A DNA stretch of 64,000 bases from Candidatus Latescibacterota bacterium. Lineage in GTDB: Bacteria > Latescibacterota > UBA2968 > UBA8231. Position numbers and translations under genes: made by a program. Location: positions 3,904,001 through 3,968,000 of the forward strand of contig OZ242318.1 in assembly GCA_965208105.1 (NCBI GenBank), given 5' to 3'. Below the pieces are notes generated by a model. The model had not been told where the DNA came from. It searched no databases and was given only the letters and a program-made list of their open reading frames with translations. Of the stretch, positions 15,178 through 62,516 are shown piece after piece. Position 1 is the first letter of the stretch. Every line of letters starts with the position of its first letter.

Positions 15178-15377
15178 CGAGTTTTCCTCTAGGACTTGGT
15201 TAGGGTCTGTTCCCCGGAGCCTTGGATGATGCTTGGAACCGAGATGTCTCTGTGTCAGGAACGCTCACCTTTGATTCGCCCTAACCTCGATTTCAGCAAC
15301 CCTTTCCATCAAGTCGGCGAACTGCTCTTCGTCGTCGAGTAACATCCCATCGCTGAGCATCCTCGCGTAATCGTCGG

Positions 15378-16539
15378 CTAGTGCTCTGTTAAGGATTCAG
15401 GCTTGTACTTTTTCGTACATGTTGGTATCATGGGGACATATGTCCATTTTTCTGGGAGGGTCCTGCCATGTGCCTCCATGCTCGAACACCGGATGCTGCC
15501 GAATCGAAAGAACTGGGCCGATGGCTGAAGCGGCCACGCAATGCCGTACAGATGCGACGAGGGCAATTGATCTCCCTCAGTGCCCAGGGTATGCGGGTCC
15601 AGGAGCTGTCGGCGACGCTGCATCTGCACGAGGAATACATCCGCTCCCTGGTCCGACGATACAACGAGGAAGGGCTGGCGTCGCTTCGCACGCGAGCCCA
15701 CCCGGGGCGCACCCCAGCGCTGACGCCCGAAGACGAGTCCGTGGTGGTGGAGATCGCCAAGATGCCCCCTCGGGCTTTCGGCCAACCCTTCAACCAGTGG
15801 TCGCTGCGCAAGCTGACCGACTGTCTGGTCGGGCGCAAGATGATCCCCAAGGTCTCGCACGTGACCATCGCCAAGGTCTTGGACCGGCATAAGGTCACCT
15901 ACCAACGTACCCGCACCTGGAAGGAGTCGAAGGATCCGGATTTCTCCTCGAAAAAAAACGCATCGACCGCCTCTACCGGCGTGCGCCGAAGGACTCGGTC
16001 GTAGTCTGCTTCGACGAAATGGGGCCCGTGCAGATCAAGCCCCATGCCGGCTCCTCCTGGGCGCCGCAGAAGCACCCGGTGCGGCACCGAGCCACCTACA
16101 CCCGGCACGCCGGGGTCAGCTATTTCTTCGGCGCCTACAACGTCCACGAGGACGTCCTGTGGATGCATCACAAGCGAAAGAAGCACGCCTCGGAGGTGCT
16201 CACTTTCCTCAAGGCCATCCGGCACCGCTACCGCAAGGCCCAACGCATCTACCTCGTTCTGGACAATTTGTCGACGCACGCGACCCCAAAGATTCGGCAA
16301 TGGTGTCGGCAGCATCGAGTCTCCCTCGTCTTCACCGCTACCAACGCCTCCTGGATGAACCGTCTCGAATGCCATCTGACCGCCGCCCACTACTTCGTCA
16401 TCAAGAACAGCGACCCAAGGGACCATCGAGACATCGGCCAGCGCATGCAGGAATACCTCGTATGGAGAAATCGAAACCAGGACGATGCCAAGCTCGCCAA
16501 AATACAAAATTCAATGCCCACTCTTTAACAGCGCACTAG
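15378..16539 (+). mobile_element. IS630-family insertion sequence, apparently intact
   Basis: Ends CTAGTGCTCTGTTAA / TTAACAGCGCACTAG, inserted at a CTAG site (TA duplication); internal TTGTAC-17-TATCAT promoter. Confidence 0.9.
15468..16528 (+). CDS. IS630 transposase (HTH orfA + DDE orfB joined by a probable -1 frameshift)
   Basis: orfA 15468-16004 is HTH; an A8 run lies at 15951-15958; the -1 frame reads KKRIDRLY...CFDEMGP...LDNLSTH...NRLE. The first catalytic Asp lies upstream of the orfB Met. Confidence 0.85.
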
Positions 16540-16660
16540 TGCCTCGTAAGCCAAGCCACGGGGCACCAGTTGCAATGCACCCGTTACTGCCGCCTCGTAG
16601 TCGATCCAACGTCCCAGGGCGTCCCGCTGGTCTTCGAGCGAGAGTGACTGAAACGACGGG

Positions 16661-24666: not shown

Positions 24667-24852
24667 TTTTTGAGTTGATAGAACTTTACCTTACGGCCAA
24701 AATTCGCGTAGCGGACCGGCTTTCCGGAATGTGACCGAATCGCGGAACCAGCCAAAATCCCTTTTATCCTACCATGCATTCAAGTCGACCGGATGGCGGC
24801 CGGTTGAGGAATTCAATTTCCACAAGCCGGGCAATCGCCGCACACTGTCCCT

Positions 24853-24952
24853 CTAGTGCGCTGTTAAGTATTCAGACTTGTAATTTTTCTTTCTTCGTGG
24901 TATCACTGGCCAAGGTCTAAAACTCAATGCCGACTCATTAACAGCGCACTAG
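24853..24952 (+). mobile_element. 100-bp MITE derived from the IS630 (family A)
   Basis: CTAGTGCGCTGTTAA...TTAACAGCGCACTAG; the interior matches the left and right terminal parts of the IS630 at 15378-16539. Confidence 0.9.
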
Positions 24953-24966
24953 CCGGAGTTGTTCCC

Positions 24967-25950: not shown

Positions 25951-26103
25951 CCGCAAGGCAGGAATCGGGCTTGCCCGGAGAGTTCAGAAGGCCTCCGACC
26001 TTGTTGGCCGACAAGCTTCTGCAGCGGGTGCTGTTTCCTCGATTACCTGGTTGCGTTTCACCACGGCTTTGACAAATTTACGATCTAATCGTAAATTTGC
26101 CGC

Positions 26104-27294
26104 ATGATCAAGCGAACCCTGACCCCCTACCTGCAGCGGGATGCCGGTTTTTACCCGGTCCTCACCCTGACCGGTCCCCGCCAGTCCGGCAAGACGACGC
26201 TGGTCCGGTCTGCCTTTCCGGATCACGACTACGTCTCCCTGGAAGACCCCGACGCCCGCGCCTTCGCCACGGAAGATCCCAGGGGCTTCCTGGACCGCTT
26301 CGCGGGACCCGTCATCCTGGACGAAGCGCAGCGTGCTCCGGATCTGTTCTCCTACATCCAGGGGCTGGTTGACCAGGACGACAAGGCCGGGCGCTTTGTC
26401 CTCACGGGGTCGCAGAATTTTCTGCTGATGTCCGCCCTGTCGCAGAGTCTGGCCGGACGGTCCGCGGTGTTGCACCTGCTGCCGTTCTCTCGCGCTGAGC
26501 TCGAAGGACAATCCCCGGCCGCGCCGGACGATCCCCGGGGGTTGTTCGCCAACAGCGAGTCCAGTCTGGACCTGTGGCCGGCCATTCATACCGGGTTCTA
26601 CCCTCGGATTCACGCTCGAGGCATCCCGGCCGGGGTGTGGATGCCGGACTACGTACAGACCTACGTCGAACGCGACCTGCGCTTCCTTGTCAACATCGGC
26701 GACCTGAGCACCTTCGAGCAGTTTCTCCGTTTGTGTGCCGGCCGCGTGGGCCAGCTGCTCAACTACTCCTCCCTGGCGAACGACTGCGGTGTATCCGTGG
26801 ACACGACGCGCAGGTGGCTCTCCGTTCTGGAGACGAGCTTCCTCGTTTTCCGTCTGCCGCCCCATTACCGAAACTTCAACAAGCGTCTGGTGAAGAGTCC
26901 AAAGATCTATTTCCACGACACCGGGCTGGCCTGCTACCTGCTGGGAATCCGGGAAGCTGACATGCTGCCGACCCATCCTCTGCGGGGTGCGCTGTTCGAG
27001 AACTACGTGGTGGCAGAAGTAGCCAAGGCCTTCGCTCACCATCGGCGGCAGCGGCAGATGCACTTCTGGCGCGACCGTTCGGGCTACGAGATCAACCTCC
27101 TCCTGTCGAGGGAAGAGGACCTGTATGCGGTGGAAATCAAGTCGGGCCAGACGGTGGCGGGAGACGGTTTCGACTCGCTGACCAGGTGGAGTGACCTGGC
27201 CTCTCAGCCGTTGGACCGGGGGACGCTTGTGTACGGCGGCGACCAGGCCTATCAACGCAACGGGATTTCCGTGCGGCCGTGGTTCGGGGTGTAG
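26104..27294 (+). CDS. AAA_14 ATPase with DUF4143
   Basis: GPRQSGKTT, LDEAQ, LTGS, KSPKIYFHDTGL, AVEIKS; TTGACA upstream. Confidence 0.9.
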   Translation: MIKRTLTPYLQRDAGFYPVLTLTGPRQSGKTTLVRSAFPDHDYVSLEDPDARAFATEDPRGFLDRFAGPVILDEAQRAPDLFSYIQGLVDQDDKAGRFVLTGSQNFLLMSALSQSLAGRSAVLHLLPFSRAELEGQSPAAPDDPRGLFANSESSLDLWPAIHTGFYPRIHARGIPAGVWMPDYVQTYVERDLRFLVNIGDLSTFEQFLRLCAGRVGQLLNYSSLANDCGVSVDTTRRWLSVLETSFLVFRLPPHYRNFNKRLVKSPKIYFHDTGLACYLLGIREADMLPTHPLRGALFENYVVAEVAKAFAHHRRQRQMHFWRDRSGYEINLLLSREEDLYAVEIKSGQTVAGDGFDSLTRWSDLASQPLDRGTLVYGGDQAYQRNGISVRPWFGV

Positions 27295-27337
27295 GGCCCA
27301 GCCGCAGGTGGACCGCAGGAGCTCCCGCGCCTTCGGT

Positions 27338-27508
27338 CCTCGACCGAGGCCGCTCCGCGACGCACCCAGGACAGGCGGTAGCCAGCCAGCGCATATCAGC
27401 CGGATCAACCGCCGCTACAGCGTCCCTTCTGTTCCCGAACAAACCCATGCAAAGATAACACCCGAAATTACCACCCTGAGTGGATTGACAACCGTTAATA
27501 CATGTCAG
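27338..27508 (+). mobile_element. Orphan right end / non-coding RNA region of the IS110 element
   Basis: Reverse-complement match to about 60968-61145, ending TTGACAACCGTTAATACATGTCAG; no transposase nearby. Confidence 0.85.
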
Positions 27509-27580
27509 TGCCTGCTTGCGCAATTCCGGGTGAACTCTGCAGCCGCAGCATCCGTTTCGGGGCGTTGCCCTCGCTTGGCC
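27507..27580 (+). mobile_element. Partial MITE family B copy
   Basis: AGTGCCTGCTTGCGCAATTCCGGGTGAA...GGCGTTGCCCTC matches the left part of 41697-41863. Confidence 0.75.
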
Positions 27581-27640
27581 ACCTTGTGAGCCGTGGCCCT
27601 CGGCGCCCCGATATCGTCAACCTGTCTCTGCGACGCGACC

Positions 27641-28930
27641 CTAGCGCCGCATGGTGATGTACACGTCGGTCCTGGCGGGTTTGCCGGCCATCGCCGATTT
27701 CGCCCGCGCCATGATGAAGTTCCAGGGTCGGTCCACCACCAGGTGGGTGCTCTGCCCGGGACCCAGCCATTCCTCCGGCTCGTGGATGATATGCCAGCCG
27801 CGGGCGTCGGCGGAGCCGAGCAGCTGCCACTGCATGGCCCCGGATCCCTCCGCATTGCTGACCTGGAGGTTTTTTTCGCGGTAGCCCCTCGCCTCCATTA
27901 TGCCGCTGTCGGCGACCTGGTCGGTGGTGGCGTAGCCCTTGAACAGGTAGGCGTCCTTCTCCGTCCGCGGGGGAATGCAGAAAGGATTCACCTCGTAGAT
28001 CATGTTGCGGCCCCAGTCGGTCACCAGCAGCGTTCCCCTGCGGGACAGGTGAACGTAGGTCGGGGACACCATATGCGGGGTGGCCGTAAGGAGCCGCCCG
28101 GGGCTGGCGCCGCCCAGCTCCCAAACCAGCTCCTTGTCCTCGTTGACGCAGAGGATGCGGGCGCGCTCGTCGGCGATGATGGTAAGGCCGGCCCCGTGCT
28201 CGTTGATGCCGTAGCGCAGGGCGCGCACCGGACAGCTCAGGCGGTCGTAGAGGTCGCCCGAACCCTGCTGGTGGCGCTCGCCGTAGAGCCAGACTGTTTC
28301 GCTCTTCCGGGTATCGACCTCGCGCACCACGGGATCGGGCCCGTAGTAACCGACCAGGAGGTCGCCTCCATATGAATCGCAGAACTGGGGATTGAGCTTG
28401 TGCAGATAGAAGGGATTGCGGTGAGGCTGGGGATCGAAGCGCCACAACCGGGCACCGTCGCTCATTCGGATTTTGAAAACGCCGTGGTCCCGGTCCGAGG
28501 CCATGATGTGGTCGTCGTCCCAGTAGATGGCCTCGAGCGGCGCCTCCAGCCCGGTGTGGCACCAGAGGATCTCTCCCGAGTCCCGGTGCAGGATCATGAC
28601 CCGGTGTTCTCCCTGGTACTCGGTGATCAGCAGGTGTTCCTGGTAGGGGCCGGAGGGCATGAAATGGACTGAATGCGCCGCGCTGAGGCGCTGCCCTGAG
28701 CCGGCCACCCCTCTCTCGCCGAAGAGAACCCTCATCTCCCGGCTGGAGCGGCTGATGATCAGGATGTCGTTGCCGTACTGCTCGGCGACCGCGATCTCGT
28801 CGGGATTGAAGGGGTTCTCCTCGGCGGCGTGAGGCCCCGACAGCTCTCCATCTCCGACACCGGGATTGCCGGTCCCGTAGGACCACACCGGGTATTGGCC
28901 GGTTGGCGATGTTTTCAAATCATCGTGCAT
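27641..28930 (-). CDS. Beta-propeller repeat protein (PQQ/arylsulfotransferase-like), function unknown
   Basis: Repeated 'LIT(E/D)...RV...GE(I/L)xW' blades. Confidence 0.6.
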   Translation of the reverse strand: MHDDLKTSPTGQYPVWSYGTGNPGVGDGELSGPHAAEENPFNPDEIAVAEQYGNDILIISRSSREMRVLFGERGVAGSGQRLSAAHSVHFMPSGPYQEHLLITEYQGEHRVMILHRDSGEILWCHTGLEAPLEAIYWDDDHIMASDRDHGVFKIRMSDGARLWRFDPQPHRNPFYLHKLNPQFCDSYGGDLLVGYYGPDPVVREVDTRKSETVWLYGERHQQGSGDLYDRLSCPVRALRYGINEHGAGLTIIADERARILCVNEDKELVWELGGASPGRLLTATPHMVSPTYVHLSRRGTLLVTDWGRNMIYEVNPFCIPPRTEKDAYLFKGYATTDQVADSGIMEARGYREKNLQVSNAEGSGAMQWQLLGSADARGWHIIHEPEEWLGPGQSTHLVVDRPWNFIMARAKSAMAGKPARTDVYITMRR

Positions 28931-29191
28931 GGCGGCTCCTGAATCCTGGCTGAAGGCGGACCCGCGCCGGTCCGCTGCTGCAAAAGTCAAGGATTATCGA
29001 ATTTTTCCAGGGAGCGGTCAAGATAGGGAACGGTCAAGGGAATCGAAAACCAGGGCGGAATGGTGGTCAGCCGCGGTTCCCCTTTTCAGGGCCCGGAGCT
29101 TGTCTGCCGCCACGGGGTGGGATATCTTTGCAGCCGAATCCCGGCCGCTTCTGCCGCGCCGGCCATGAAAAGACCAATCCTGGAGGAGAAA

Positions 29192-30592
29192 ATGGCCCTG
29201 GAGCTTATCGATCCCAAGAAGTACCGGCAGTTGTTTCTCGACGACTTCGCCGTGGAAAAAATGACCGGTGTCTACCGCACGTTGCACCAGCCCGAGAAGG
29301 TGGGTCCCGCGGTGAGGCCGGACCGCAGCCGCGGTGAAACCGCCCTGCAGAGCCGCATCTCTCCCCAGTGGAACAGTGAGAAGGAGCGCTGGGAGTGGTG
29401 GTTCGGCAGTGACTTCGCCACCTCCGCAGACGGCGAACACTGGGAGCGTTTTCCGCAGAAGGTCGTCCCCTCGCACGCGGTCCGCGACGAGCGCGACCCG
29501 GATCCCCGGCGGCGCTACAAAGGCCTGCTGGGCAGCCGCCACGGCAACGATCAATGCCCCGCCTTTTCGGCTGACGGCATCGAGTGGGAGCGCCTCGACG
29601 TGCCTCCCATACCCAGCCAGGACGAGCACCAGTTCACCTACGACCCCTATGGCGACCGCTACATCGCCATGGTCAAGCACGGCACCGAGTGGGGGCGCTC
29701 GGTGTTTCTCGCCTCCAGCGAGGACGGCGTACACTACACCGAGCCCGAGTTGATCTTCCACACCGACGAGATCGACCGCGAGAACCGCAGGAAACGGGTG
29801 CGCGAGGTCCTCGAGAATCCGGTCTACATAAAACCTGCCTTCATCGACGACGTCGACTATATCGCCGAGGCGTATCACATGGCGGTGATGCCCTACCAGG
29901 GGTTCTACATCGGCTTTCCGCTGATCTTCAACCCCATCGGCGCGGTGCCGCCGCCGCATACCAACTTCACCCGCATCAACCAGATCGAACTGGCGGTCTC
30001 GCGCGACCTCCACAACTGGGAGCGGGTCGCCGACCGCGCCCTGTTCATCGGCATCGAGCCGTGGGACGGGAAACGCTACGACACCAACCAGGTGGGCATG
30101 TCGGGGCAGCCGGTGGTGCGCGAGGACGGGGAGATCTGGATCTACTACATCGGCTCCCGCATTCCTTCCAGAAAGGAGCAGTACGAGCGCTATAATCACA
30201 ACGAGGAGCTGTTCCGCCTCGGGGTCGACCCGGACCTCTTCGACGACAGCACCACCATCTGTCTGGCGAAACTGCGCCCCGACGGCTTTGTCTCGCTGGA
30301 CGCCGATGCCGCCGGCACCATTACCTCCAAGCCCTTCATCTGGAGGGGCGAGGACCTGTACGTGAACGTGGATGCGCGCTGGGGCGAGTTCTACGCCGAG
30401 ATCGTGGACGCCGAGAGCAACAAGGTCTTTCCCGGTTTCTGGGTGCCCGCCGAGCTTCCCGCTCCACTGAAGGGGAATCATCTGCGGGCCAAGGTCGAGT
30501 GGAAGCCGGACCACGATCTGGTTTTCGAAAAGCCGGTGCGGGTGCGCTTCTACCTGCACCAGGCGCGGCTCTTCTCCTTCTGGCTGGAATGA
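29192..30592 (+). CDS. Glycosidase-like five-bladed beta-propeller protein (paralogue 1)
   Basis: RQLFLDD, DPDPRRRYK, SxDGxxW boxes, LRPDGFVSL, ARLFSFW; GGAGGAG RBS. Confidence 0.65.
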   Translation: MALELIDPKKYRQLFLDDFAVEKMTGVYRTLHQPEKVGPAVRPDRSRGETALQSRISPQWNSEKERWEWWFGSDFATSADGEHWERFPQKVVPSHAVRDERDPDPRRRYKGLLGSRHGNDQCPAFSADGIEWERLDVPPIPSQDEHQFTYDPYGDRYIAMVKHGTEWGRSVFLASSEDGVHYTEPELIFHTDEIDRENRRKRVREVLENPVYIKPAFIDDVDYIAEAYHMAVMPYQGFYIGFPLIFNPIGAVPPPHTNFTRINQIELAVSRDLHNWERVADRALFIGIEPWDGKRYDTNQVGMSGQPVVREDGEIWIYYIGSRIPSRKEQYERYNHNEELFRLGVDPDLFDDSTTICLAKLRPDGFVSLDADAAGTITSKPFIWRGEDLYVNVDARWGEFYAEIVDAESNKVFPGFWVPAELPAPLKGNHLRAKVEWKPDHDLVFEKPVRVRFYLHQARLFSFWLE

Positions 30593-30678
30593 GTCAGGTC
30601 ATCGCCCGTTTCACAGCCGATCCACCATCTCGATGACACCCGCATCATTGGCCGGTCCGGAATAACCTGGCAGAATCG

Positions 30679-35321: not shown

Positions 35322-36764
35322 ATGCCTCTCGAAATGATTGACCCCAAGAAAAACCGCCAGCTATTCCTCGACGACCACGCAGTGGAGGAGATGAGCAGAA
35401 CGACCCGCACCCTGCATTCTCCGAAGAAATGGGGGCCTCTCATAAACGGGGGGGTTCAGACCAGGATCTGTCCCCAGTGGAACTCGGAGAAGGGACTGTG
35501 GGAGTGGTGGTACTCCGGGGACCATGTCTACTACGCCACCTCGGAGGATGGAGAGCACTGGGAGAAACCCGTCCTGGGGCTGTTCGAATGGAATGGATCG
35601 AAGGACAACAACATTGCCTTCGATCCACAGGACAAAGGTCCGGGAAGGCCGTATCACGTTTTGCGCGACGAAACCGACCCGGACCCGGCCCGCCGCTACA
35701 AGGCGATGCTCGCCACCGACAACCGCCATCCGGCCGTTTCCCCGGACGGATTTCACTGGACCATGGTGGATACCCCTCCCGTTCCCAGCTACGACGAGTC
35801 CCAGTTCACCCACGACCACCAGTCCGGGCAATTCCTCGCCCTGGTGAAGCTGGGCACCGAATGGGGGCGCTCGGTTTGGCTATCCACCAGTTCGGACTTC
35901 AAGGAATTCTCAGAGCCTGAGCTGATCTTCCACACCGACGAGATCGACCGCGAGAACCGCCGCCGCCGGGTCCGGGAGGTCATCGAAAACCCGGCCTATA
36001 TCACTCCTGCCGTCATCGACGACGAGGACTACATCGCCGAGTGCTACAACATGGCGGTCCTGCCCTACCAGGGATTTTACATCGGTTTCCCGACCATCTT
36101 CAATCCCTTCGGCGCCATCCCTGCGCCGGCTACCAACTTCACCCGCATCAACCAGATCGAAATGACGGTCTCGCGCGATCTCCACCATTGGGAGCGCGTC
36201 GCCGACCGCGCCCTGTTCATCGGGATCGAACCTTTCGACGGAGAGAACTACGGTTGCACCCAGTTGCTGATGGCGGGGCATCCCATCGTGCGCGACGACG
36301 GCGAGATCTGGTGTTACTACAATGCCCTGAGGACCCCTTCGAGAATCGAGCAGTACAGGGAGTTCGGCGCCACCGGGGAGCTCTTCAGGCTCAACGCCAA
36401 ACCCGAGCACTTCGAAGATTCCGGCGCCCTGTCCCTGGCCAAGCTGCGCCCTGACGGATTCGTTTCGATCGACGGCGACCGGTGCGGCACCATCCTGACC
36501 AAACCCTTCGAACTCAAGGGCGAGGATGTCTATATCAACGCCAGCGCCGATTGGGGCGAGATTTACGCCGAGATCGTCGATGCGGAAACCAGGAAACCGC
36601 ACGAAGGATTCTGGGTCCCCGGACAGGAGCCGCCGGCCTTCACCGGCGACAGCACCAGGGCGAAGGTCCGGTGGAAACATCCGCACGACCTGGTGTTCGA
36701 AAAGCCGGTGCGCCTCAAGTTCTATCTGCGCCAGGCCCGCCTGTTTTCCTTCTGGATCGAGTAA
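35322..36764 (+). CDS. Glycosidase-like beta-propeller protein (paralogue 3)
   Basis: Long near-identical blocks with 29192-30592 (EPELIFHTDEIDRENRR, NFTRINQIE). Confidence 0.65.
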   Translation: MPLEMIDPKKNRQLFLDDHAVEEMSRTTRTLHSPKKWGPLINGGVQTRICPQWNSEKGLWEWWYSGDHVYYATSEDGEHWEKPVLGLFEWNGSKDNNIAFDPQDKGPGRPYHVLRDETDPDPARRYKAMLATDNRHPAVSPDGFHWTMVDTPPVPSYDESQFTHDHQSGQFLALVKLGTEWGRSVWLSTSSDFKEFSEPELIFHTDEIDRENRRRRVREVIENPAYITPAVIDDEDYIAECYNMAVLPYQGFYIGFPTIFNPFGAIPAPATNFTRINQIEMTVSRDLHHWERVADRALFIGIEPFDGENYGCTQLLMAGHPIVRDDGEIWCYYNALRTPSRIEQYREFGATGELFRLNAKPEHFEDSGALSLAKLRPDGFVSIDGDRCGTILTKPFELKGEDVYINASADWGEIYAEIVDAETRKPHEGFWVPGQEPPAFTGDSTRAKVRWKHPHDLVFEKPVRLKFYLRQARLFSFWIE

Positions 36765-36848
36765 TCCCCGGGGTCTCCCGTACTCGGCCCGTGTCCGGAC
36801 CCGGCACCGGGTTCTCCATGCGGCCTCGCGTATTTCGCTTTCCAGCCG

Positions 36849-41696: not shown

Positions 41697-41863
41697 CTAG
41701 TGCCTGCTTGCGTAATTCCGCGTGAATTCGGCCGCCGCTGCATCCCGGCTCGCGGCGTTGCCCTCCCTCGCCGTACACTCCAGGTACGACTCGCTCAGGC
41801 GCCTTGCGAGCCGGGCGCTTCTGCGCCCTCGTTCGTACGCTTAATTACGCAAGCAGGCACTAG
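41697..41863. mobile_element. 167-bp MITE (family B)
   Basis: Perfect 21-bp TIR CTAGTGCCTGCTTGCGTAATT / AATTACGCAAGCAGGCACTAG. Confidence 0.9.
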
Positions 41864-54173: not shown

Positions 54174-57100
54174 CTAAAACCGAACTGCCCCCCTCACATC
54201 TATGCGATGTTCGGCGGATTGCTGGACTCGATTGCCTCGTCCGGCGGAAACGTTGAGGTCCAGCATCTCAAAGGCCGTACCAGTGAAGCGGCCCAGTTGG
54301 AATCCAAGGCGCATTAGCGACCGCTCCGAGCTGACAGGTCCGAACTCGGCAAACGGGGTCAGCACTCCATGCAAGGGCTCGACTCGCATACTGTAGCCGA
54401 CCAGGGCATCCATGGACCAAACGTCGGGGGAAAGCCCGAAACGGCCGGTCTGGAGCGCACCGTCGCGCCACAGGGCATGGGTACCGCGGTCGGCAGCACC
54501 CCAACGCGGGGCAAGCGACATCGACAGGCCAAGGCCGTCCCTGCCCGGTGACAGGCTGGCAATGATGCTGCCTCCACTCTCCTGGTAGGTTGAATTTAAC
54601 GCAAGCATGCGGCCCCTGGCCTCGATCTGGAATCGCGACCTCGGGCACTGGTAACGCAACCCACCAGCTACCTCCAGGCCCCCGCCGGTCTGGCCATCAC
54701 CGCCGTCGTAGCGGCCACCAAGTTCACCGAAGGGAGTTATCGTTGCGCAGCTGGCCAATACCACGGTGCGAGCGCCTTCCACACCAAGGCGGAAGCGTTG
54801 ACCCGCCACGGCTTGATCGTCGAGTACTTCCTCTCCTTCGGCAGTGGAGAGATTCACGATTCCCACGTCGCCCCGGAGAGACATGTCCAACCCACCCATG
54901 GATCCCAGGGATTGCCTCGCTCCCAGGAGCCCCAGGGACATGGAGAGATCGCTTTCCTCCGTGGTAGAAGTGACCCCTCGCTCGTTTTCGGCAGTGCCTA
55001 CCCCGACGCCACCCAGGGCCCAGATGTCCATTCCGGCACTAGGTGCCCAGCGCACATAGGGATATACACTTGTCAGAACCGTGGTCAACGTGCCGCCTCC
55101 AATTGCTCCATCTCCAGAGAAGGTGTAGTTGGCCTCACCCATACTGTAGGATACCGACACACCTGCCTGACCGGTTGCGGCCACGCGCTTGTCGGCTCCG
55201 AGATATACCGTCATCAAGGTCCCGTCGTGGCTGCCGTGATCCGGGGTACCTTCGAAGGCCTGGTAGTCGCCCAGGCCCCACAAGGTCCAGTTCGGCAGTC
55301 CTTGATCGGCATCGCTGGATCCTACCGGGACGGCGAAGGAGGTGTTCCGAATGGCCTGTTTCCAGGAAATTCCTCCTCCAAGGGTGCCCAATCCGCGAGG
55401 ATAGCGGAAATCGCCCTCCAGGCCTGTGACCTGGGAAGCCAACGGATCTCTATCGCTTCCACTCAGGAGGGAAAGCCCCGCCAGGGTTGCTTTATTGGAG
55501 CCCGAACTGGAGGCGAAGCGAGCACCGATTGCCGATGAAACGCTCGATAGAGTGCTCCGGCCAATCGCTGCCAACGCGTCGCCTACAATTGCCACCTCAG
55601 CCGGTTCGGTGACCACGGTCACGACGAAGGTTTGAGAAGCATCGGGGCCAATTGTGTTCATTGCAACCACTTCAATGGTAGATTCACCTTCTATTACGGC
55701 CGCCACGGTTACCTCAGACCCCGCGACGGAAACGGTGGCAACCCCGGGATTCGAGGAGGTTGCGCTATAGTTCAGGTCAAGGCCGCGGAAATTGTCCGAA
55801 ACGTCCTCGACCCCGTCAGCACCGCCGACGTACAGCATCATGACGGGGATTGGATCGACCCTGGTCGGCTCGTCGTCGTTGTCGGTCAGAGTAATGGTCA
55901 CTGACTCGACCGTAAAGCCCTCTGCGGACCCCTCGACCACGATGGTCTCATCGTACTCGGGAATGAGCTCCTCGGGCGGGGTCAGCGTCAGGGTCCCGCT
56001 GCTTTCAGTCGTACGGGCTCCAACCGTGATCGTTGGAATCGATGCGGCGTAGTCCGTGCCTTCTTCGGCAGTTCCCGACAAGGACAGCGATACTTGCGTA
56101 TCAGTCAGCAGGGCGGTGCTGCCATCGCCCAGAACGGCCGTCACTTCGAACGAGGTTTCCCCATCTCCTTCGTCAAAGCTGGGCACGTCCACGCTCAGAG
56201 TGATGGAGGTTGGCGCCACATCGTTGTCGGTCACGGTCAGCTCGACAGAAGCGATTTCGAACCCCTCGGCGCTGCCTTCGAGGACGATGATCTCGTCTCC
56301 CTCAGCCAGGTTGTCGTCCACCAGAGAAATGGGAATGGTTGCGCTGCCCGTCGTGCCCCTGGCGGCGATGGTCAGAGTGGCAGCTGTGGCGGCATTGTCT
56401 TCGCTTTCGGCCACCGAGAGGGCGACCTGGGTGTCGGTCAACAGGGCGGTGCTGCCGTCGCCCAGGACCGCCGACACCGTGGCCTCGCCGCCGGTCCCTT
56501 CGTCGAAGCTGGACACGTCCACGCTCAGAGAGATGGTGGTCGGCATCACGTCGTTGTCGGTTACGGTCAACTCGACGGAGGCGATACCATATCCCTCGGC
56601 GCTGCCTTCGAGGACGATGGTTTCGTCGCCCTCGACCAGGTTGTCGTCCACCAGGGAAATGGGAATGGTTGCGCTGCCCGTCGTGCCCCTGGCGGCGATG
56701 GTCAGAGTGGCAGCTGTGGCGGCATTGTCTTCGCTTTCGGCCACCGAGAGGGCGACCTGGATGTCGGTCAGCAGGGCGGTGCTGCCGTCGCCCAGGACCG
56801 CGGTCACCGTGGCCTCGCCGCCGGTCCCTTCGTCGAAGCTGGACACGTCCACGCTCAGAGAGATGGTGGTCGGCATCACGTCGTTGTCGGTCACGGTCAA
56901 CTCGACGGAGGCGATATCATATCCCTCGGCGCTGCCTTCGAGGACGATGGTTTCGTCGCCCTCGACCAGGTTGTCGTCCACCAGGGAAATGGGAATGGTT
57001 GCGCTGCCTGCCGTCTCCCTGGCGGGAATGGTCAGGGTGGCTTCGGCGGCGGCGTTGTCTTCGCTTTCGGTCACCGAGAGGGCGACCTGGGTGTCGGTCA

Positions 57101-59747
57101 GCAGGGCGGTGCTGCCGTCGCCCAAGACCGCGGTCACCGTGGCCTCGCCGCCGGTCCCTTCGTCGAAGCTGGACACGTCCACGCTCAGAGAGATGGTGGT
57201 CGGCATCACGTCGTTGTCGGTCACGGTCAACTCGACGGAGGCGATTTCAAACCCTTCGGCGCTGCCTTCGAGTGCGATGGTTTCGTCGCCCTCGACCAGG
57301 TTGTCGTCCACTAGAAAGAAGGGAAGGGTTGCGCTGCCTGTCGTCTCTGTGGCGGGAATGGTCAGGGTGGCTTCGGCGCCGGCATTGTCTTCACTTTCGG
57401 CCACCGAGAGGGCGACCTGGGTGTCGACCAACAGGGCGGCGCTGCCGTCGCCCAAGACCGCGGTCACCACGACCTGGCCTCCCGGACCTTCTTCAAAGCT
57501 GTTCGGGTCGAGGCTCAGAGAGATGGTGGTCGGCATCACGTCGTTGTCGGTTACCGTCAACTCGACGGAGGCGATTTCAAATCCACCTGCGCTGCCTTCG
57601 AGTGCGATGGCTTCGTCACCCTCGACCAGGTTGTCGTCCACCAGGGACAGGGGCAGGCTCACGCTGCCTGTCGTCTCCCTGGCGGGAATGGTCAGGGTGG
57701 CTTCGGCGCCGGCATTGTCTTCACTTTCGGCCACCGAGAGGGCGACCTGGGTGTCGACCAACAAGGCGGCGCTGCCGTCGCCCAAGACCGCGGTCACCGT
57801 CACCTCGCCGCCCGTTCCTTCATCGAAACTGGATGCGTCCACGCCCAGAGAGATGGTGGTCGGCATCACGTCGTTGTCGGTTACCGTCAACTCGACGGAG
57901 GCGATTTCAAATCCACCTGCGCTGCCTTCGAGTGCGATGGCTTCGTCACCCTCGACCAGGTTGTCGTCCACCAGGGACAGGGGCAGGCTCACGCTGCCTG
58001 TCGTCTCCCTGGCGGGAATGGTCAGGGTGGCTTCGGCGCCGGCATTGTCTTCACTTTCGGCCACCGAGAGGGCGACCTGGGTGTCGGTCAACAGGGCGGT
58101 GCTGCCGTCGCCCAAGACCGCGGTCACCGTCACCTCGCCGCCCCTTCCTTCATCAAAACTGGATGCGTCCACGCTCAGAGAGATGGTCGTCGGCATCACG
58201 TCGTTGTCGATTACCGTCAACTCGACGGAGGCGATTTCCAGACCATCTGCGTTGCCTTCGAGTGTGATGGTCTCGTCACCCTCGACCAGGTTGTCGTCCA
58301 CCAGGGATATGGGCAGGGTTGCGCTGCCTGTCGTCTCTGTGGCGGGAATGGTCAGAGTGGCAACTGTGGCTGCATTGTCTTCGCTTTCGGCCACCGAGAG
58401 GGCGACCTGGGTGTCGGTCAACAGGGCGGTGCTGCCGTCGCCCAAGACCGCGGTCACCGTCACCTCGCCGCCCCTTCCTTCATCGAAACTGGATGCGTCC
58501 ACGCTCAGGGTAACGGAAGTGGGCGCCACATCATTGTCGCTCAACCCGACCATGGCCGATTCGACGATGAAACCGGGGGAAACACCCGACACTTCGATCG
58601 TCTCTTCGCCTTCGGCCAAATTATCCTCGATCAAGGTTAAGGCTATGGTTCCCGACCCTTCTGCTTGCTCGGCGGGAATCGTAATGGTCAGCTCGGAGGC
58701 CTCGTAGTCGGGGCCGAATTCCACGTGAGTGCCGGACAGCGACACCACCACTTCCGTGTCCACCAGAAGGACAGTGGAGCCGTCACCCAGCAGGCCTGTC
58801 ACGTTGACCGAGACTCCTCCTTCCCCTTCCCCAACGTTGGAAGGATCGACTGAAAGGGAAATCGAAGTCGGGGTTATGTCGTTATCCGTCAAGGCAACCT
58901 CTGCGGTGGAAACCTCCAGATCCTGGGCGTCCACAGTGGCACCACCGGTGGCGGAGGATGAACCCACGATCACGATGGTCTCGGGATCATCCCCTTCTAC
59001 GATGTTGTCGTCGTTGATGTTCAGGGTCAGGATCGTCCTTCCCTCGGTTCCGCCGGCTGGAATGACAACTTCCTGATCACCCAACTCCCCAACGTAATCT
59101 CGGCCATCCACATTCTCCGCCGTACCAGACAAGGAGAGCTGAATCGGGGTGGCAAGGGACCACGACTTGCTCAAGGTCGCGGTTACGACCGAATTCACCA
59201 CACCATCATCCTCGGCTACACTGTTGGGGTCAACAGACAGGGTTACAGTGGGCAGAGTAAAGTCAATTTGAGGACTGGCCTCGGCGGGGATGCTCTCTTC
59301 GCCACTAATCGTAGAGATGGTAGTGACAGAAAAGGTATAAGTTGCACCCAGGGTGAGAGAGTTGTCCACGAAGGAGGTCTGGCCGGAGGGAACAGTACCT
59401 AATAGTGCAGGTTCGGAACCTCCTGAGGCTGAACGCCACACATTATACCCAGCCACATCGTTGAAATTGAGAAAGTTTCCCTCAGAGGTAAAATTGCTGC
59501 CGGCCGGGACACTGCGCAGTTGGTCATTCGGCGACAGGTTCCAGGAGATGGTGACACTCCTTCCGTCCGCGCTTAGGTCAGCCCGAACCCCGCTGATCGG
59601 CTCAAAGACTCGCTCAGCGCTACCCCCCGCTCCGGACCCATCCTCTGTGCTGCCCGTGAGCTGTGCTGCCAGGGGGCTTGAGCACAGGAAAACGCTCAGG
59701 CCCAGCAGAATGGAAATTGTGATTAGGCCTTCTTTACTTCTTGACAT
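54174..59747 (-). CDS. Large autotransporter adhesin with Fn3-like and Calx-beta-like repeats
   Basis: Signal peptide, acidic repeats 'DDNLVEGDETI...TDND', C-terminal beta-barrel ending in VRF. Confidence 0.85.
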   Translation of the reverse strand: MSRSKEGLITISILLGLSVFLCSSPLAAQLTGSTEDGSGAGGSAERVFEPISGVRADLSADGRSVTISWNLSPNDQLRSVPAGSNFTSEGNFLNFNDVAGYNVWRSASGGSEPALLGTVPSGQTSFVDNSLTLGATYTFSVTTISTISGEESIPAEASPQIDFTLPTVTLSVDPNSVAEDDGVVNSVVTATLSKSWSLATPIQLSLSGTAENVDGRDYVGELGDQEVVIPAGGTEGRTILTLNINDDNIVEGDDPETIVIVGSSSATGGATVDAQDLEVSTAEVALTDNDITPTSISLSVDPSNVGEGEGGVSVNVTGLLGDGSTVLLVDTEVVVSLSGTHVEFGPDYEASELTITIPAEQAEGSGTIALTLIEDNLAEGEETIEVSGVSPGFIVESAMVGLSDNDVAPTSVTLSVDASSFDEGRGGEVTVTAVLGDGSTALLTDTQVALSVAESEDNAATVATLTIPATETTGSATLPISLVDDNLVEGDETITLEGNADGLEIASVELTVIDNDVMPTTISLSVDASSFDEGRGGEVTVTAVLGDGSTALLTDTQVALSVAESEDNAGAEATLTIPARETTGSVSLPLSLVDDNLVEGDEAIALEGSAGGFEIASVELTVTDNDVMPTTISLGVDASSFDEGTGGEVTVTAVLGDGSAALLVDTQVALSVAESEDNAGAEATLTIPARETTGSVSLPLSLVDDNLVEGDEAIALEGSAGGFEIASVELTVTDNDVMPTTISLSLDPNSFEEGPGGQVVVTAVLGDGSAALLVDTQVALSVAESEDNAGAEATLTIPATETTGSATLPFFLVDDNLVEGDETIALEGSAEGFEIASVELTVTDNDVMPTTISLSVDVSSFDEGTGGEATVTAVLGDGSTALLTDTQVALSVTESEDNAAAEATLTIPARETAGSATIPISLVDDNLVEGDETIVLEGSAEGYDIASVELTVTDNDVMPTTISLSVDVSSFDEGTGGEATVTAVLGDGSTALLTDIQVALSVAESEDNAATAATLTIAARGTTGSATIPISLVDDNLVEGDETIVLEGSAEGYGIASVELTVTDNDVMPTTISLSVDVSSFDEGTGGEATVSAVLGDGSTALLTDTQVALSVAESEDNAATAATLTIAARGTTGSATIPISLVDDNLAEGDEIIVLEGSAEGFEIASVELTVTDNDVAPTSITLSVDVPSFDEGDGETSFEVTAVLGDGSTALLTDTQVSLSLSGTAEEGTDYAASIPTITVGARTTESSGTLTLTPPEELIPEYDETIVVEGSAEGFTVESVTITLTDNDDEPTRVDPIPVMMLYVGGADGVEDVSDNFRGLDLNYSATSSNPGVATVSVAGSEVTVAAVIEGESTIEVVAMNTIGPDASQTFVVTVVTEPAEVAIVGDALAAIGRSTLSSVSSAIGARFASSSGSNKATLAGLSLLSGSDRDPLASQVTGLEGDFRYPRGLGTLGGGISWKQAIRNTSFAVPVGSSDADQGLPNWTLWGLGDYQAFEGTPDHGSHDGTLMTVYLGADKRVAATGQAGVSVSYSMGEANYTFSGDGAIGGGTLTTVLTSVYPYVRWAPSAGMDIWALGGVGVGTAENERGVTSTTEESDLSMSLGLLGARQSLGSMGGLDMSLRGDVGIVNLSTAEGEEVLDDQAVAGQRFRLGVEGARTVVLASCATITPFGELGGRYDGGDGQTGGGLEVAGGLRYQCPRSRFQIEARGRMLALNSTYQESGGSIIASLSPGRDGLGLSMSLAPRWGAADRGTHALWRDGALQTGRFGLSPDVWSMDALVGYSMRVEPLHGVLTPFAEFGPVSSERSLMRLGFQLGRFTGTAFEMLDLNVSAGRGNRVQQSAEHRIDVRGAVRF
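56221..58540 (-). repeat. About 7 tandem 330-bp (110-aa) coding repeats
   Basis: The anchor CGGCATCACGTCGTTGTCG recurs at 56541, 56871, 57201, 57531, 57861 and 58191. Confidence 0.95.
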
Positions 59748-60195
59748 TTTCGATATCCTCCTCAACGATTTTCCCGCAAATGTAGGAATGAAAATTTAGA
59801 GTTAGAATTTGATTTGGAATTGGAATTCTCAGATGCCCTTCGTCCTGTTTGTGAAATAATTACATAAAGTTATGCGCAGTTATACAAATTCACATTAAAC
59901 ATTATAAGCTACGAAAAACCGCTGAGTAGCGCAACGGATTATTATGGATCAACTTCCATTTAGTGGTCCAAATCGCCCTTCTCCCGGCATGGGATCTTGG
60001 ACGGCATGGGATCTTGGATTCGGGACGGGTCCGGTTTGAGTCGCTCCTGTGGACGAGCCACAGCGATATGGCCTCTCCTGAGGTCCCCGGCAGGTGAAAT
60101 CGCCCCATCTCTCCACGGACGGCAAATGATGAAGCAGCCATGGTCCGGTTCCTTTCCACTGCAGCCCAGGGTCATCGAGAGTATGGAGAGGGCCC

Positions 60196-60226
60196 AGCAG
60201 CCCGTTGAAATAGCCCATCCGGGCCG
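60196..60226. mobile_element. End fragment of MITE family C
   Basis: AGCAGCCCGTTGAAATAGCCCATCCGGGC matches the reverse complement of the right end of 39262-39427. Confidence 0.7.
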
Positions 60227-60969
60227 CTAGTGCGCTGTTAAAGAGTCGGCATTGAATTTTGTATTTTGGCGAGCTTGGCATCGTCCTGGTTTCGATTTCT
60301 CCATACGAGGTATTCCTGCATGTGCTGGCCGATGTCTCGATGGTCCCTTGGGTCGCTGTTCTTGATGACGAAGTAGTGGGCGGCCGTCATGTGGCATTCG
60401 AGACGGTTCATCCAGGAGGCGTTGGTAGCGATGAAGACGAGGGAGACTCGATGCTGCCGACACCATTGCCGAATCTTTTGGGTCGCGTGCGTCGACAAAT
60501 TGTCCAGAACGAGGTAGATGCGTTGGGCCTTGCGGTAGCGGTGCCGGATGGCCTTGAGGAAAGTGAGCACCTCCGAGGCGTGCTTCTTTCGCTTGTGATG
60601 CATCCACAGGACGTCCTCGTGGACGTTGTAGGCGCCGAAGAAATAGTGACCCCGGCGTGCCGGGTGTAGGTGGCTCGGTGCCGCACCGGGTGCTTCTGCG
60701 GCGCCCAGGAGGAGCCGGCATGGGGCTTGATCTGCACGGGTCCCATTTCGTCGAAGCAGACTACGACCGAGTCCTTCGGCGCACGCCGGTAGAGGCGGTC
60801 GATGCGTTTTTTTCTGAGGAGAAATCCGGATCCTTCGACTCTTTCCAGGTGCGGGTACGTTGGTAGGTGACCTTATGCCGGTCCAAGACCTTGGCGATGG
60901 TCACGTGCGAGACCTTGGGGATCATCTTGCGCCCGACCAGACAGTCGGTCATCTTGCGCAGCGACCACT
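60227..60969 (-). pseudogene. Second IS630 copy, 5'-truncated and frameshifted
   Basis: Near-identical to about 15795-16539; 1-nt deletion near 60647; left part missing at the IS110 junction. Confidence 0.9.
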
Positions 60970-61039
60970 GATATGTATTGACGGTTGTCAACCCTCTCCG
61001 GGGTGGTCGTTTCGGGTGTTATCTTTGCATAGTTTGTTC

Positions 61040-61208
61040 GGGGACAGATGGGACGCTGTAGCGACGGTTGATCCGACTGATATTCGCGGGTTGGCTACCG
61101 CCTGTCCTGGGTGCGTCGCGGAGCGGCCTCAATCTAGAGTCGAGGGTCAGCCTGAAAAGGCGCCTCATAGTGTCTTCGAGGATTCTCCTGACCGGTCCCT
61201 TCTGTCCC
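61040..61208 (-). ncRNA. Putative bridge/seek RNA of the IS110
   Basis: Closed by the GGGACAGAAGGGAC / GTCCCATCTGTCCC stem; internal segments match the target (CACTA, CTAG) and the element end (ATATCAG). Confidence 0.65.
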
Positions 61209-61262
61209 GTTTCGATTTACATGAGCAAAGGTCCTATGCCGGCTTCTGAGACGATGAGCTTA

Positions 61263-62402
61263 TCAGGCGGCGATCCGAGGTCTCCTGGCCACGAGGCGGC
61301 CGGGGCGTTTCTGCTCCCAGGCGATGGCCCAGATGAAACCCAAAAGCTCCCGCGCGATCGCGGTGCAGACTTTGTTTTTCGGCATCCCTCGCCCACTCAG
61401 CCGTCGATAGCGTCCACACAGGCGTTTCTGTGCCTTCCAGGCGATGGCCTGTATGGGGGGTGCGGTCTGTTCGGCGCGTCGTTGCAAGGCGGCCGTCTTG
61501 CGGGCGGGAAAGCGATAGCACCAGGCCGCTTCCACCAGCACGCGCCGCACGTGGGCGTTGCCCGCCTTGGTGATCGCCCCTCGCTTTTGGCGGGAGCCGC
61601 TGGAATGCTCGCTGGGGACCAGACCGACGAAGGCCATCAGTTGGCGCGGCGAGTCAAAGCGGGTGAGGTCCCCCAACTCGGCCAGGGTCGTAACCGCGGT
61701 GAGCGTGTCTACCCCGCGCAGCGCCCTCATAGCCCGCGTCTCCCCTTCCAAAGACCATCCCTCCAGCGCCTGCTGCAGGGCCTGGTCCAACCCCTGGATC
61801 CGACCTTGGGCTTCCTGTACCGCGTCCACGTATTCCTGAAAGACGATCTGCTGGGCCGGATGATCGAAGCGCTGGGTCTGCAGCCAGCGAAAGTGGGCTT
61901 GGGTCCAGCGACTGCGCCCGGAGTAGATCCGGCCGTGGCGCTGCAAGAAGCTGTTCAGCCGCTGGCGCACGCGGCGCTCGGCGTGCTTGAAGTCTTCCCG
62001 GCAGCGCTCCAGATCGCGCATCGCCTCCTGCGCTTGGTCGGGCACCCACACGGGGGTCAACTCGCCGTGTTGGAAAAGCCGCACCAGAGACACAGCATCG
62101 CGGCGGTCGGTCTTGATGCGGTCGCCCGGCCGACGCGGGATCAGCGAGGGCGCCACCACCGTGCAGGCGTGCCCTAGGGCTGTGAGCTGACGGTAGACGC
62201 CGTAGCCGCAGGGTCCGGCCTCGTAGCAAAACCGCAACGACGTCTCCGAGCCGGCCAGTTTGGCCGCCAGTTGGGACAACGCGGCGCCCGTAGAAGGTAT
62301 CGTTCCATACAGGTCCGGCCCTTTTCGGCCTTCACCGGCCAGGGCGACGGTGATCGAATCTTTATGTATGTCCAAGGCGACGAATTTCGTAGATTTACGC
62401 AT
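61263..62402 (-). CDS. IS110 DEDD recombinase/transposase
   Basis: ALDIHK, CYEAGP, KTDRRDA, GLVPSEHSSG; GGAGGAGG RBS. Confidence 0.95.
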   Translation of the reverse strand: MRKSTKFVALDIHKDSITVALAGEGRKGPDLYGTIPSTGAALSQLAAKLAGSETSLRFCYEAGPCGYGVYRQLTALGHACTVVAPSLIPRRPGDRIKTDRRDAVSLVRLFQHGELTPVWVPDQAQEAMRDLERCREDFKHAERRVRQRLNSFLQRHGRIYSGRSRWTQAHFRWLQTQRFDHPAQQIVFQEYVDAVQEAQGRIQGLDQALQQALEGWSLEGETRAMRALRGVDTLTAVTTLAELGDLTRFDSPRQLMAFVGLVPSEHSSGSRQKRGAITKAGNAHVRRVLVEAAWCYRFPARKTAALQRRAEQTAPPIQAIAWKAQKRLCGRYRRLSGRGMPKNKVCTAIARELLGFIWAIAWEQKRPGRLVARRPRIAA

Positions 62403-62516
62403 GGCCTCCTCCTTTTCGCTGGGGATAGGTCTTTGGGTGAACTCCGTTTTCCCAAAGATAACCCCCGAAAACCGAAATCGGAGGAGGTCTTTCATATCTC
62501 CGTCAATACATAAGGT

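Follow-up and report, generated by a model that had tools for sequence, protein, structure and literature searches.

A transposase-free tail of an IS110-family element next to an IS630-type MITE: a probable decaying insertion remnant in a Candidatus Latescibacterota genome

The genome under study is a single contig of 4.85 Mb, of which we analyzed a stretch of 64,000 nucleotides corresponding to positions 3904001 to 3968000 (called "the window" throughout; coordinates refer to the window unless they are said to be genomic). The locus of interest begins directly downstream of a gene for a DUF4143 ATPase (26104 to 27294) and lies on the same strand. It consists of a copy of the last 164 nt of an insertion sequence (IS) of the IS110 family, without a transposase (27343 to 27506, forward strand; IS positions 1388 to 1551), followed by a dinucleotide AG (27507 to 27508, forward strand) and by an IS630-type MITE (27508 to 27641, forward strand), after which a TA is found at 27642 to 27643. 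The first-pass annotation had placed an orphan IS110 end at 27338 to 27580; the fragment does lie inside this span, which also takes in approximately 70 nt of the MITE. Two further features of the window are noted for completeness. An open reading frame (ORF) of 1863 aa (54174 to 59765, reverse strand), probably encoding a repetitive surface protein, contains seven to nine tandem 330-bp repeats that are 81 to 92% identical (56166 to 58446), and two regions with 72 to 83% identical stretches, located 6.1 to 6.2 kb apart (29348 to 30609 and 35457 to 36781), are probably paralogous genes.

The parent element of the fragment is present in the genome in 12 full copies (95 to 100% identity), in addition to the fragment itself and two small pieces near 4.0 Mb. 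One full copy of about 1.55 kb is located in the window (62516 to 60971, reverse strand) and was taken as the reference for comparison. Its transposase ORF of 410 aa (61263 to 62495, reverse strand) matches PF01548 (4.2e-13) and PF02371 (2e-22) in Pfam and reaches 262.6 bits, against a cut-off of 140, for the NCBIfam model NF033542, "IS110 family RNA-guided transposase"; both the DEDD (RuvC-like) N-terminal domain and the PF02371 C-terminal domain are present. The stop codon is followed by a non-coding region of 292 nt (60971 to 61262, reverse strand), which includes the module homologous to the fragment (60971 to 61133, reverse strand), and the left end is short, with at most about 46 nt ahead of the ORF. 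All 12 copies carry 13-bp subterminal inverted repeats, TATGTATTGACGG on the left and CCGTCAATACATA on the right, a length within the 7 to 17 bp by which we recognized an IS1111-like layout. Judged by these sequence features, the parent is an IS110-family element of IS1111-like layout with a predicted non-coding region of the bridge/seekRNA type. Rfam yielded no family over the non-coding region when the whole window was searched at gathering thresholds, and at E <= 1 the interval from 60900 to 61300 returned a chance snoRNA match alone. Two of the full copies, at genomic positions 1994946 to 1996379 and 2923416 to 2924969, are damaged, one by an internal gap between IS positions 1230 and 1322 and the other by a transposase frame split at approximately residue 269. 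In the window's full copy, the CTAG of the left junction (62517 to 62520) overlaps the TAG stop codon of a gene for a carbon-nitrogen hydrolase (62517 to 63410, reverse strand).

When the fragment is aligned with this full copy, as the first-pass annotation had proposed, 27330 to 27506 on the forward strand pairs with the reverse complement of 60968 to 61146. With the 292-nt non-coding end as query, a genome-wide BLAST search recovered the fragment with an E value of 3.4e-54 and 90% identity over positions 133 to 290 of the non-coding region, and its identity to the full copies is 91 to 92% in 10 of 12 cases and 88% in the other two, the window's own copy being among the latter. A tblastn search of the genome with the 410-aa transposase matched the 12 full copies alone, and no transposase is found at the fragment locus. 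The alignment, BLAST, and tblastn results thus bear out the view that a transposase-free, diverged copy of an IS110 non-coding end lies here; it occurs once in this genome. In terms of the fold predicted below, three parts survive in the fragment: RNA domain 2 (CGCGACG...CGCCGC, whose loop bears ATATCAG), one strand (3') of the closing stem, and, as the subterminal inverted repeat of the right end, CCGTTAATACAT. The ATATCAG motif is kept at 27394 to 27400, while TCTAGATT and all sequence of the non-coding region upstream of it are missing; domain 1 is lost with them, as is the other strand (5') of the predicted closing stem.

Insertion of the parent element is site specific at a conserved short core. 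In all 12 full copies the left junction reads flank-CT/AG-ACCTTATG and the right junction ...ACATATC-AG/TG, which gives the consensus layout flank-CT/AG-ACCTTATGTATTGACGG ... CCGTCAATACATATC-AG/TG-flank (12/12). The right flank is the tip of an element termed MITE C in 10 of these copies and another MITE-like tip in one; in the remaining copy, that of the window, it is an internal site of an IS630-family element. None of the 12 copies has a random flank unrelated to AGTG, a pattern that the first-pass annotation had named as speaking against its proposed target preference. In relatives that have TT or AG after the core, the changes in the guide described below match. The frequent use of MITE tips follows from their structure: these MITEs sit in C-TA-G with a duplicated TA and begin with GTG, and therefore every MITE tip offers CT-AG-TG.

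The right junction of the fragment has the same form. Its 3' end, ...ACATGTC (up to 27506), is followed by AG, whose A doubles as the A of the TA target duplication of the MITE, and then by TGCCTGCTTGCG, the tip of an IS630-type MITE inverted repeat. The letters after the AG core, TGCCTGCTTGCGCAATTCC, are the left inverted repeat of the family termed MITE B, and the 47 nt past the junction match the left end of an intact MITE at 41697 to 41862 (family D12) at 87%. The MITE B left end has 22 matches, and among the 12 commonest flank contexts listed for them the IS-derived TGTC-AGTGCC occurs here alone, the others being ..CT or, once, AATT. The fragment's right flank is thereby a MITE type unlike those carrying the 12 full copies. 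The ending ...CATGTC-AG at a MITE B-type terminus had been described correctly, and, as had been suggested, the fragment adds one more event at the preferred target, in the same CT/AG/TG context as 12 of 12 full copies.

How the terminus beside the fragment looks without interruption can be seen in an intact MITE B of the window (41697 to 41863, forward strand, with the MITE proper at 41700 to 41860 between the flanks C-TA and TA-G). It reads C-TA-GTGCCTGCTTGCG...CGCAAGCAGGCAC-TA-G or, with more of the ends written out, C-TA-GTGCCTGCTTGCGTAATT...AATTACGCAAGCAGGCAC-TA-G. MITE B (GTGCCTGCTTGCG) and MITE C (GTGTCCCGTCGCAG), with 19 and 92 full-length copies in the genome, respectively, are abundant 166-bp families that have a common central core and distinct terminal repeats. 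The MITE adjacent to the fragment is a hybrid of the two, whose left inverted repeat is of the B type (GTGCCTGCTTGCGCAATT) and whose right end resembles that of MITE C (...CTCTGCGACGCGACCC); a BLAST search of the genome gave 22 matches for its left end and 89 for its right end, and over the full length only the MITE itself. The window also contains an IS630-family element (15375 to 16546) with the ends C-TA-GTGC...GCAC-TA-G, whose transposase is distributed over two ORFs (15468 to 16004 and 16019 to 16528) that both match NF033545 and is probably frameshifted. A second IS630 copy (60220 to 60970, 98% identity) is cut at 60970, where it abuts the right end of the window's full IS110-family copy at an internal CC/AG/TGG; given that the left flank of that IS copy is not IS630 sequence, this copy has been rearranged. 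Another MITE, of approximately 100 bp (24850 to 24953), consists of the two termini of this IS630-family element (CTAGTGCGCTGTTAAG...CTTAACAGCGCACTAG; families D9/D13/I6/I8).

To place the fragment within the putative guide RNA, we built an alignment of the non-coding regions from 25 transposase-linked copies, of which this genome contributed 12 and other genomes and metagenome contigs 13, and predicted a fold from 13 lineages with RNAalifold. The predicted structure features a long closing stem (CGGGACAGAAGGGAC with GTCCCATCTGTCCCCG), a domain 1 in which AAGACACUA and ACUCUAGAU form the two sides of an internal loop, and a domain 2 (CGCGACG...CGUCGC) with loops that contain CACCCAG, GAAUAUCA, and GGAUCAAC. 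Since almost all predicted pairs are invariant, covariation speaks neither for nor against the fold; the stability of domain 2 does not exceed that of shuffled sequences (z of -0.1 to -0.8). The loop of domain 1 offers a clearer signal. The reverse complement of its 5' side gives T-AG followed by the right flank, and this side and the flank vary in step from lineage to lineage, as in the guide/flank pairs GACACTA with TAGTGTC, AAACTA with TAGTTT, ACGACACTA with TAGTGTCGT, and CTGCACTA with TAGTGCAG. The contiguous match between guide and flank averages 3.47 for a guide's own pairing versus 1.71 for non-own pairings, and the summed contiguous matches of the eight distinct guides, 30, were reached in none of 10000 permutations. 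By eye, the 3' side of the loop (CTCTAG, then ACC) tracks the left junction, from the flank through the core to the element's first three bases, and TTAG variants of the guide occur together with TT/AG left junctions. This co-change with the right flank, together with the tracking of the left junction, points to domain 1 as the target-binding part. Thus, a loop of the non-coding region co-varies with the target flank, as expected of the target guide of a bridge RNA or seekRNA, the RNA itself being a prediction. On the donor side, the right junction (ATATC-AG-T) recurs as the ATATCAGT loop of domain 2; since the donor ends are nearly invariant, they leave no room for an equivalent covariation test of the donor-side guide. 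The first-pass distinction between a donor-like half that was kept and a target-like half that was lost fits both the predicted two-domain fold and the guide-target covariation.

What remains of the RNA gene in the fragment has accumulated changes at positions that are otherwise conserved. In the 180-column alignment of the module, there are 95 invariant columns, judged on the full set of 25 transposase-linked copies. At those columns the fragment has seven changes (7/95), as compared to 0 to 2 in 23 of the 25 transposase-linked copies, 7 and 8 in two degenerate ones, and a single change (1/95) in the other clean transposase-free copy that was found, a solo element from genome G030 described below. 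One of the seven changes affects the core, four lie around ATATCAG in the invariant GCCAACCCGCGAATATCAGTCGGATCAACCGTCGC block, and two lie in the right inverted repeat and end. The changes in the ATATCAG loop region and those in the fragment's own end fall at different positions and are consequently not compensatory. Furthermore, 3 of the 13 predicted pairs of domain 2 are broken in the fragment, while they are kept in 13 of 13 lineages and in the G030 solo; given how little covariation and stability the predicted fold shows, these broken pairs are weak evidence. The outer stem is absent from the fragment's minimum-energy fold. A consensus scan of 27100 to 27750 detected neither a promoter-like nor a terminator-like site.

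Contigs from RNA libraries (X1 and X2, small shares) align over 27338 to 27441. Upstream, they extend into complete non-coding regions that belong to related elements, which indicates that they do not stem from the fragment locus; none of them bridges 27340 or 27507, parts of the fragment are uncovered, and they have no bearing on its transcription either way. Their loose ends read ...TATGAGGCGCCTTTCAGGCGGACCCTCGAC and ...GGGCTGACCCTCGACACTA. One X2 contig of 302 nt has a depth of 30, versus 2.4 to 2.5 for the other two X2 contigs, a hint that the non-coding region may be transcribed in relatives.

Against this background, the idea that the fragment might provide a trans-acting partial RNA is unlikely and not supported. 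A complete RNA would comprise a target-binding part, a donor-side part, and a closing stem, of which the fragment lacks the first entirely and retains a single strand of the last, in addition to the altered invariant positions, the broken pairs, and the absence of a promoter-like site in the scanned interval. Seen as a mobile module, it has a right end with two changes and a left side that reads CT-CG-ACC, versus CT-AG-ACC in the G030 solo, without a left subterminal repeat. There is one copy rather than the several expected of a non-autonomous mobile module. Most likely, the fragment is a relic without activity today; we infer this lack of function from the sequence.

Next, we turn to the left boundary. 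The non-coding region of the parent contains an internal CTAG (61134 to 61137, reverse strand; CTCTAG/ATTGAGG in the window's copy) that mimics the element's left junction, CT-AG-ACC. In most lineages this internal motif reads CTAG/ACCGAGG and is identical to the left junction over CTAGACC, and in the full copies of this genome it reads CTAG/ATTGAGG or ATAG/ACTGAGG. The resemblance is a necessary one, given that the guide DNA encodes the left-target guide, the core, and the "handshake" bases and must therefore copy the element's own CT-AG-ACC. The fragment starts at this motif or within 11 nt of it: its IS homology begins at GACCGAGG (27342/27343), preceded by CG (27341 to 27342, forward strand) where the AG crossover core is expected, and by a CT (27339 to 27340, forward strand) that is common to the chromosomal flank of relatives and stands in the place of either the left-target CT or the CT of the internal CTAG. 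The C of this CG falls in column 2 of the module alignment, which holds A in 25 of 25 transposase-linked copies; it may represent an A-to-C change or a remnant of a deletion junction. One substitution, or a deletion ending 11 nt upstream (CCT/CGAC) followed by a 7-nt slippage loss of TCTAGAC, would fit the CG junction equally well.

The G030 solo (L052/L064) begins exactly at the internal motif. It reads AAGTA-CT-AG-ACCGAGGTC on the left, with the start CT-AG-ACCGAGG, and ...ACATATC-AG-TATTGTGTCCCC on the right, with the end ATATC-AG-TATTGTG, so that a canonical AG is found on both sides. It too is present in one copy, and nowhere else in G030 is the sequence of approximately 110 nt just to its left matched in full, the sole hit being one of 31 nt. 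Pattern scans of genome contigs (11 matches) and metagenome contigs (4 matches) returned more full copies and no new solos; two of the matches, in genome G134, end at contig edges. Other right-end pieces without a transposase start elsewhere, namely, at approximately IS position 1449 (fuzzy) in G001 (L039), at approximately 1445 to 1457 in G030 (L055), at 1486 in G040 (L021), and at 1401 in G053 (L048). In genome G041, three transposase-free elements (L056, L059, and L061) consist of about 25 nt of the IS left end plus the target-loop half and stop within 1 to 2 nt of the internal site; GTGGCAC(A/G)CGTGA lies on both sides of them, inside a larger shared repeat. Two clean solos (n = 2) suggest a site-specific left boundary; the case for a possible cryptic site would draw on these and on this one reciprocal family. 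Outside the window, on the minus strand of the same contig (genomic positions 3999575 to 3999611 and 4001325 to 4001432; L014 and L015), there is a second diverged (~85%) transposase-free piece of the non-coding region, covering non-coding positions 14 to ~165. It is split at the internal TTAG by a MITE C that itself carries a full IS copy in its tip, making three nested insertions; this split indicates that the internal (C/T)TAG is also a target of IS630-type elements.

Comparison with relatives shows which state of the locus came first. In G001, a genome of the same genus, the window is syntenic from 26005 to 27335 (90.6%) and from 27574 to 29499 (85.8%); approximately 29 unrelated bases replace 27341 to 27573, and the right part of the MITE is present. 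Synteny on the left stops right after the CT at 27339 to 27340. The 29 bases have no other match in this genome or in G001; by eye, three short ordered matches between them and the fragment were noted, candidates at most for remains of the fragment. A DNA contig of run X7 is much closer to this genome than G001 is (8 differences over 441 nt of left flank) and joins 27340 to 27508 via 28 letters homologous to those of G001, followed by the left end of the MITE. The CT at 27339 to 27340 is thus chromosomal DNA located 27 nt further left than the original flank of the MITE. Because both relatives have 28 to 29 bases in the place of the fragment, this genome shows a derived state, in which the left junction arose by deletion. 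The same comparison with G001 and X7 marks the MITE as old, and the most parsimonious assumption is that the 28-nt state is ancestral. The fragment differs by 8 to 12% from the resident copies, while the flanks of the X7 relative, which lacks it, are only ~2 to 5% off, a discrepancy that calls for either fast neutral decay or an extinct source lineage. We also considered 27275 to 27342, which is present in G001 as well, as a degenerate target-binding half. Its local alignment scored 27.25, a value that 93 of 1000 shuffles and 288 of 1000 random genomic 68-mers attained as well, and the idea was rejected.

We consider it probable (roughly 70%) that the fragment is what remains, in a state of decay, of the right-hand side of an old IS110-family insertion whose left part was deleted near the internal motif. 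The order of events that we infer is as follows. The parent element would first have inserted at its usual CT/AG/TG target, here ...CC-T/A-GTGCC, formed by the MITE tip GTG... within its CTAG/TA target. A deletion would then have removed 27 nt of chromosomal flank, the left end, the gene for the transposase, and the half of the RNA gene responsible for target binding; it would have ended at, or within 11 nt of, the internal CTAG/ACC motif. As this motif encodes the guide for the left target, the core, and 3 donor nucleotides, it copies the element's own left junction. The parts left over, namely, domain 2, one strand (3') of the closing stem, and the inverted repeat of the right end, would since have gathered changes at otherwise invariant positions.

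Alternatively, the 164-nt unit could be a non-autonomous mini-element that was excised between the internal CT-AG-ACC, serving as a cryptic left end, and the true right end, and that then inserted into the MITE tip with the help of the transposase and RNA of full copies; the present left junction would in that case require a subsequent 27-nt deletion between CCT repeats and a change from AG to CG. The identity of the internal site with the left junction over CTAGACC in most lineages would suit such an excision, as would the canonical junctions of the G030 solo on both sides (CT-AG-...-AG-T). Precedents exist as well: ISPpu9 is described as forming circles from alternative internal boxes with an AG crossover and as having transposase-free modules (PMC12288879), and a mini IS with nothing but the two ends is reported to be mobile once transposase and seekRNA are provided in trans (PMC11187229). 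Nevertheless, we regard this course of events as unlikely. The unit has no left subterminal inverted repeat, is found as a single copy in both this genome and G030 with no sign of amplification, and in the window has a left flank that is not the MITE's own, 27 nt being missing. A double-stranded circle of 166 bp would moreover be under strong strain. Finally, a deletion in situ yields the identical product.

A simpler view is that the left boundary is a random deletion end point of an ordinary truncated IS, its nearness to the internal CTAG being a coincidence. The four right-end pieces that start elsewhere would agree with this, as would the CG in place of AG at the junction. However, the two independent clean solos, from different genome families, both start at GACCGAGG, and by our own estimate the chance of falling within 2 nt on either side of one site in ~1390 nt is roughly 0.3%, which leaves this view with a low probability. 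Least probable of all is that the fragment has been kept for a useful RNA, be it a donor-loop-only half-bridge acting in trans or a transposase-binding decoy that damps transposition: split bridge RNAs are reported to work and read-through transcripts can supply functional bridge RNA in IS621 (both PMC13626964), and read-through from the DUF4143 ATPase gene just upstream is conceivable, but 7 of 95 invariant positions are altered (four in the GCCAACCCGCGAATATCAGTCGGATCAACCGTCGC block and two in the right end/inverted repeat), 3 of 13 predicted pairs are broken, the loop and end changes are not compensatory, no promoter-like site was found in the scan, and the two relatives G001 and X7 do without the fragment.

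It is tempting to speculate, and we do so with considerable reserve, that the guide-encoding DNA constitutes a cryptic recombination site and that recombination between it and a true end splits the guide-RNA gene. Under this tentative scheme, the products might be half-bridge solos, as in the window and G030, and reciprocal elements of left end and target loop, as in the three of G041. If it were true, a 1.39-kb circle from the left end and the internal site would be expected to join ...GACTCT-AG-ACCTTATGTATTGAC, where the normal circle junction would read ...ATATC-AG-ACCTTATG. Self-targeting would then be a built-in liability of RNA-guided recombinases and, at the same time, a route to modular RNA halves that complement each other in trans; a mimic that is truly a cryptic site would bear on the design of bridge recombinase cassettes and on how natural elements break down.

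What makes the locus informative is, accordingly, less the fragment, which is most likely an ordinary dead IS remnant, the solo tail of a known kind of element, than what followed from its study. The small IS family provides a natural guide code in the form of guide-target covariation across lineages, it exemplifies a layered parasitism in which an IS110-type element lives on the tips of IS630-type MITEs, and it exposes a possible structural weak point, in that the guide-encoding DNA mimics the element's own junction. IS4321 and IS5075, which belong to this group of ISs, land specifically in the terminal repeats of Tn3-family transposons. The parent IS likewise lands in a terminal repeat of another mobile element, the hosts here being IS630-type MITEs.

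The parent resembles ISEc11, ISKpn4, ISPa11, and IS621 in its DEDD transposase, its long downstream non-coding region, and its insertion at a 2-nt core, and the subterminal repeats and downstream non-coding region agree with the bridge/seekRNA-type IS1111 layout as described in PMC11187229 and PMC11208160. As in the IS1111 group, its non-coding region holds short matches to both target strands, one of which co-varies with the target. It differs from the IS1111 type in the length of its transposases, 403 to 410 aa and thus outside the 330 to 350 aa that PMC11187229 gives as typical, and from that group in its target, the CTAG/TA junction of IS630-type MITE tips, and in having left the fragment, a 164-nt tail without a transposase. 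The closest parallel to the internal mimic is ISPpu9 with its module ssr9 in Pseudomonas putida KT2440, which likewise belongs to the IS110 family, uses an AG crossover, and has internal boxes that copy the ends; according to PMC12288879, ISPpu9 forms alternative circles, transposase-free modules are scattered through the genome, and ssr9 has copies of the two end boxes (A' and B') at its borders, occurs in several copies, is separate from the guide RNA, and is dispensable for transposition. The fragment departs from ssr9 in that it belongs to the guide-RNA gene itself, is a single decayed copy, and has a cryptic left site of only 7 nt (CTAGACC). With ordinary partial ISs, be they solo ends or pseudogenized copies, the fragment shares the lack of a transposase, the presence of one end, the accrual of substitutions, and the absence from close relatives. 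In contrast to them, it is broken off at, or close beside, a motif resembling the recombination site of the element itself, which suggests a possible site-specific origin.
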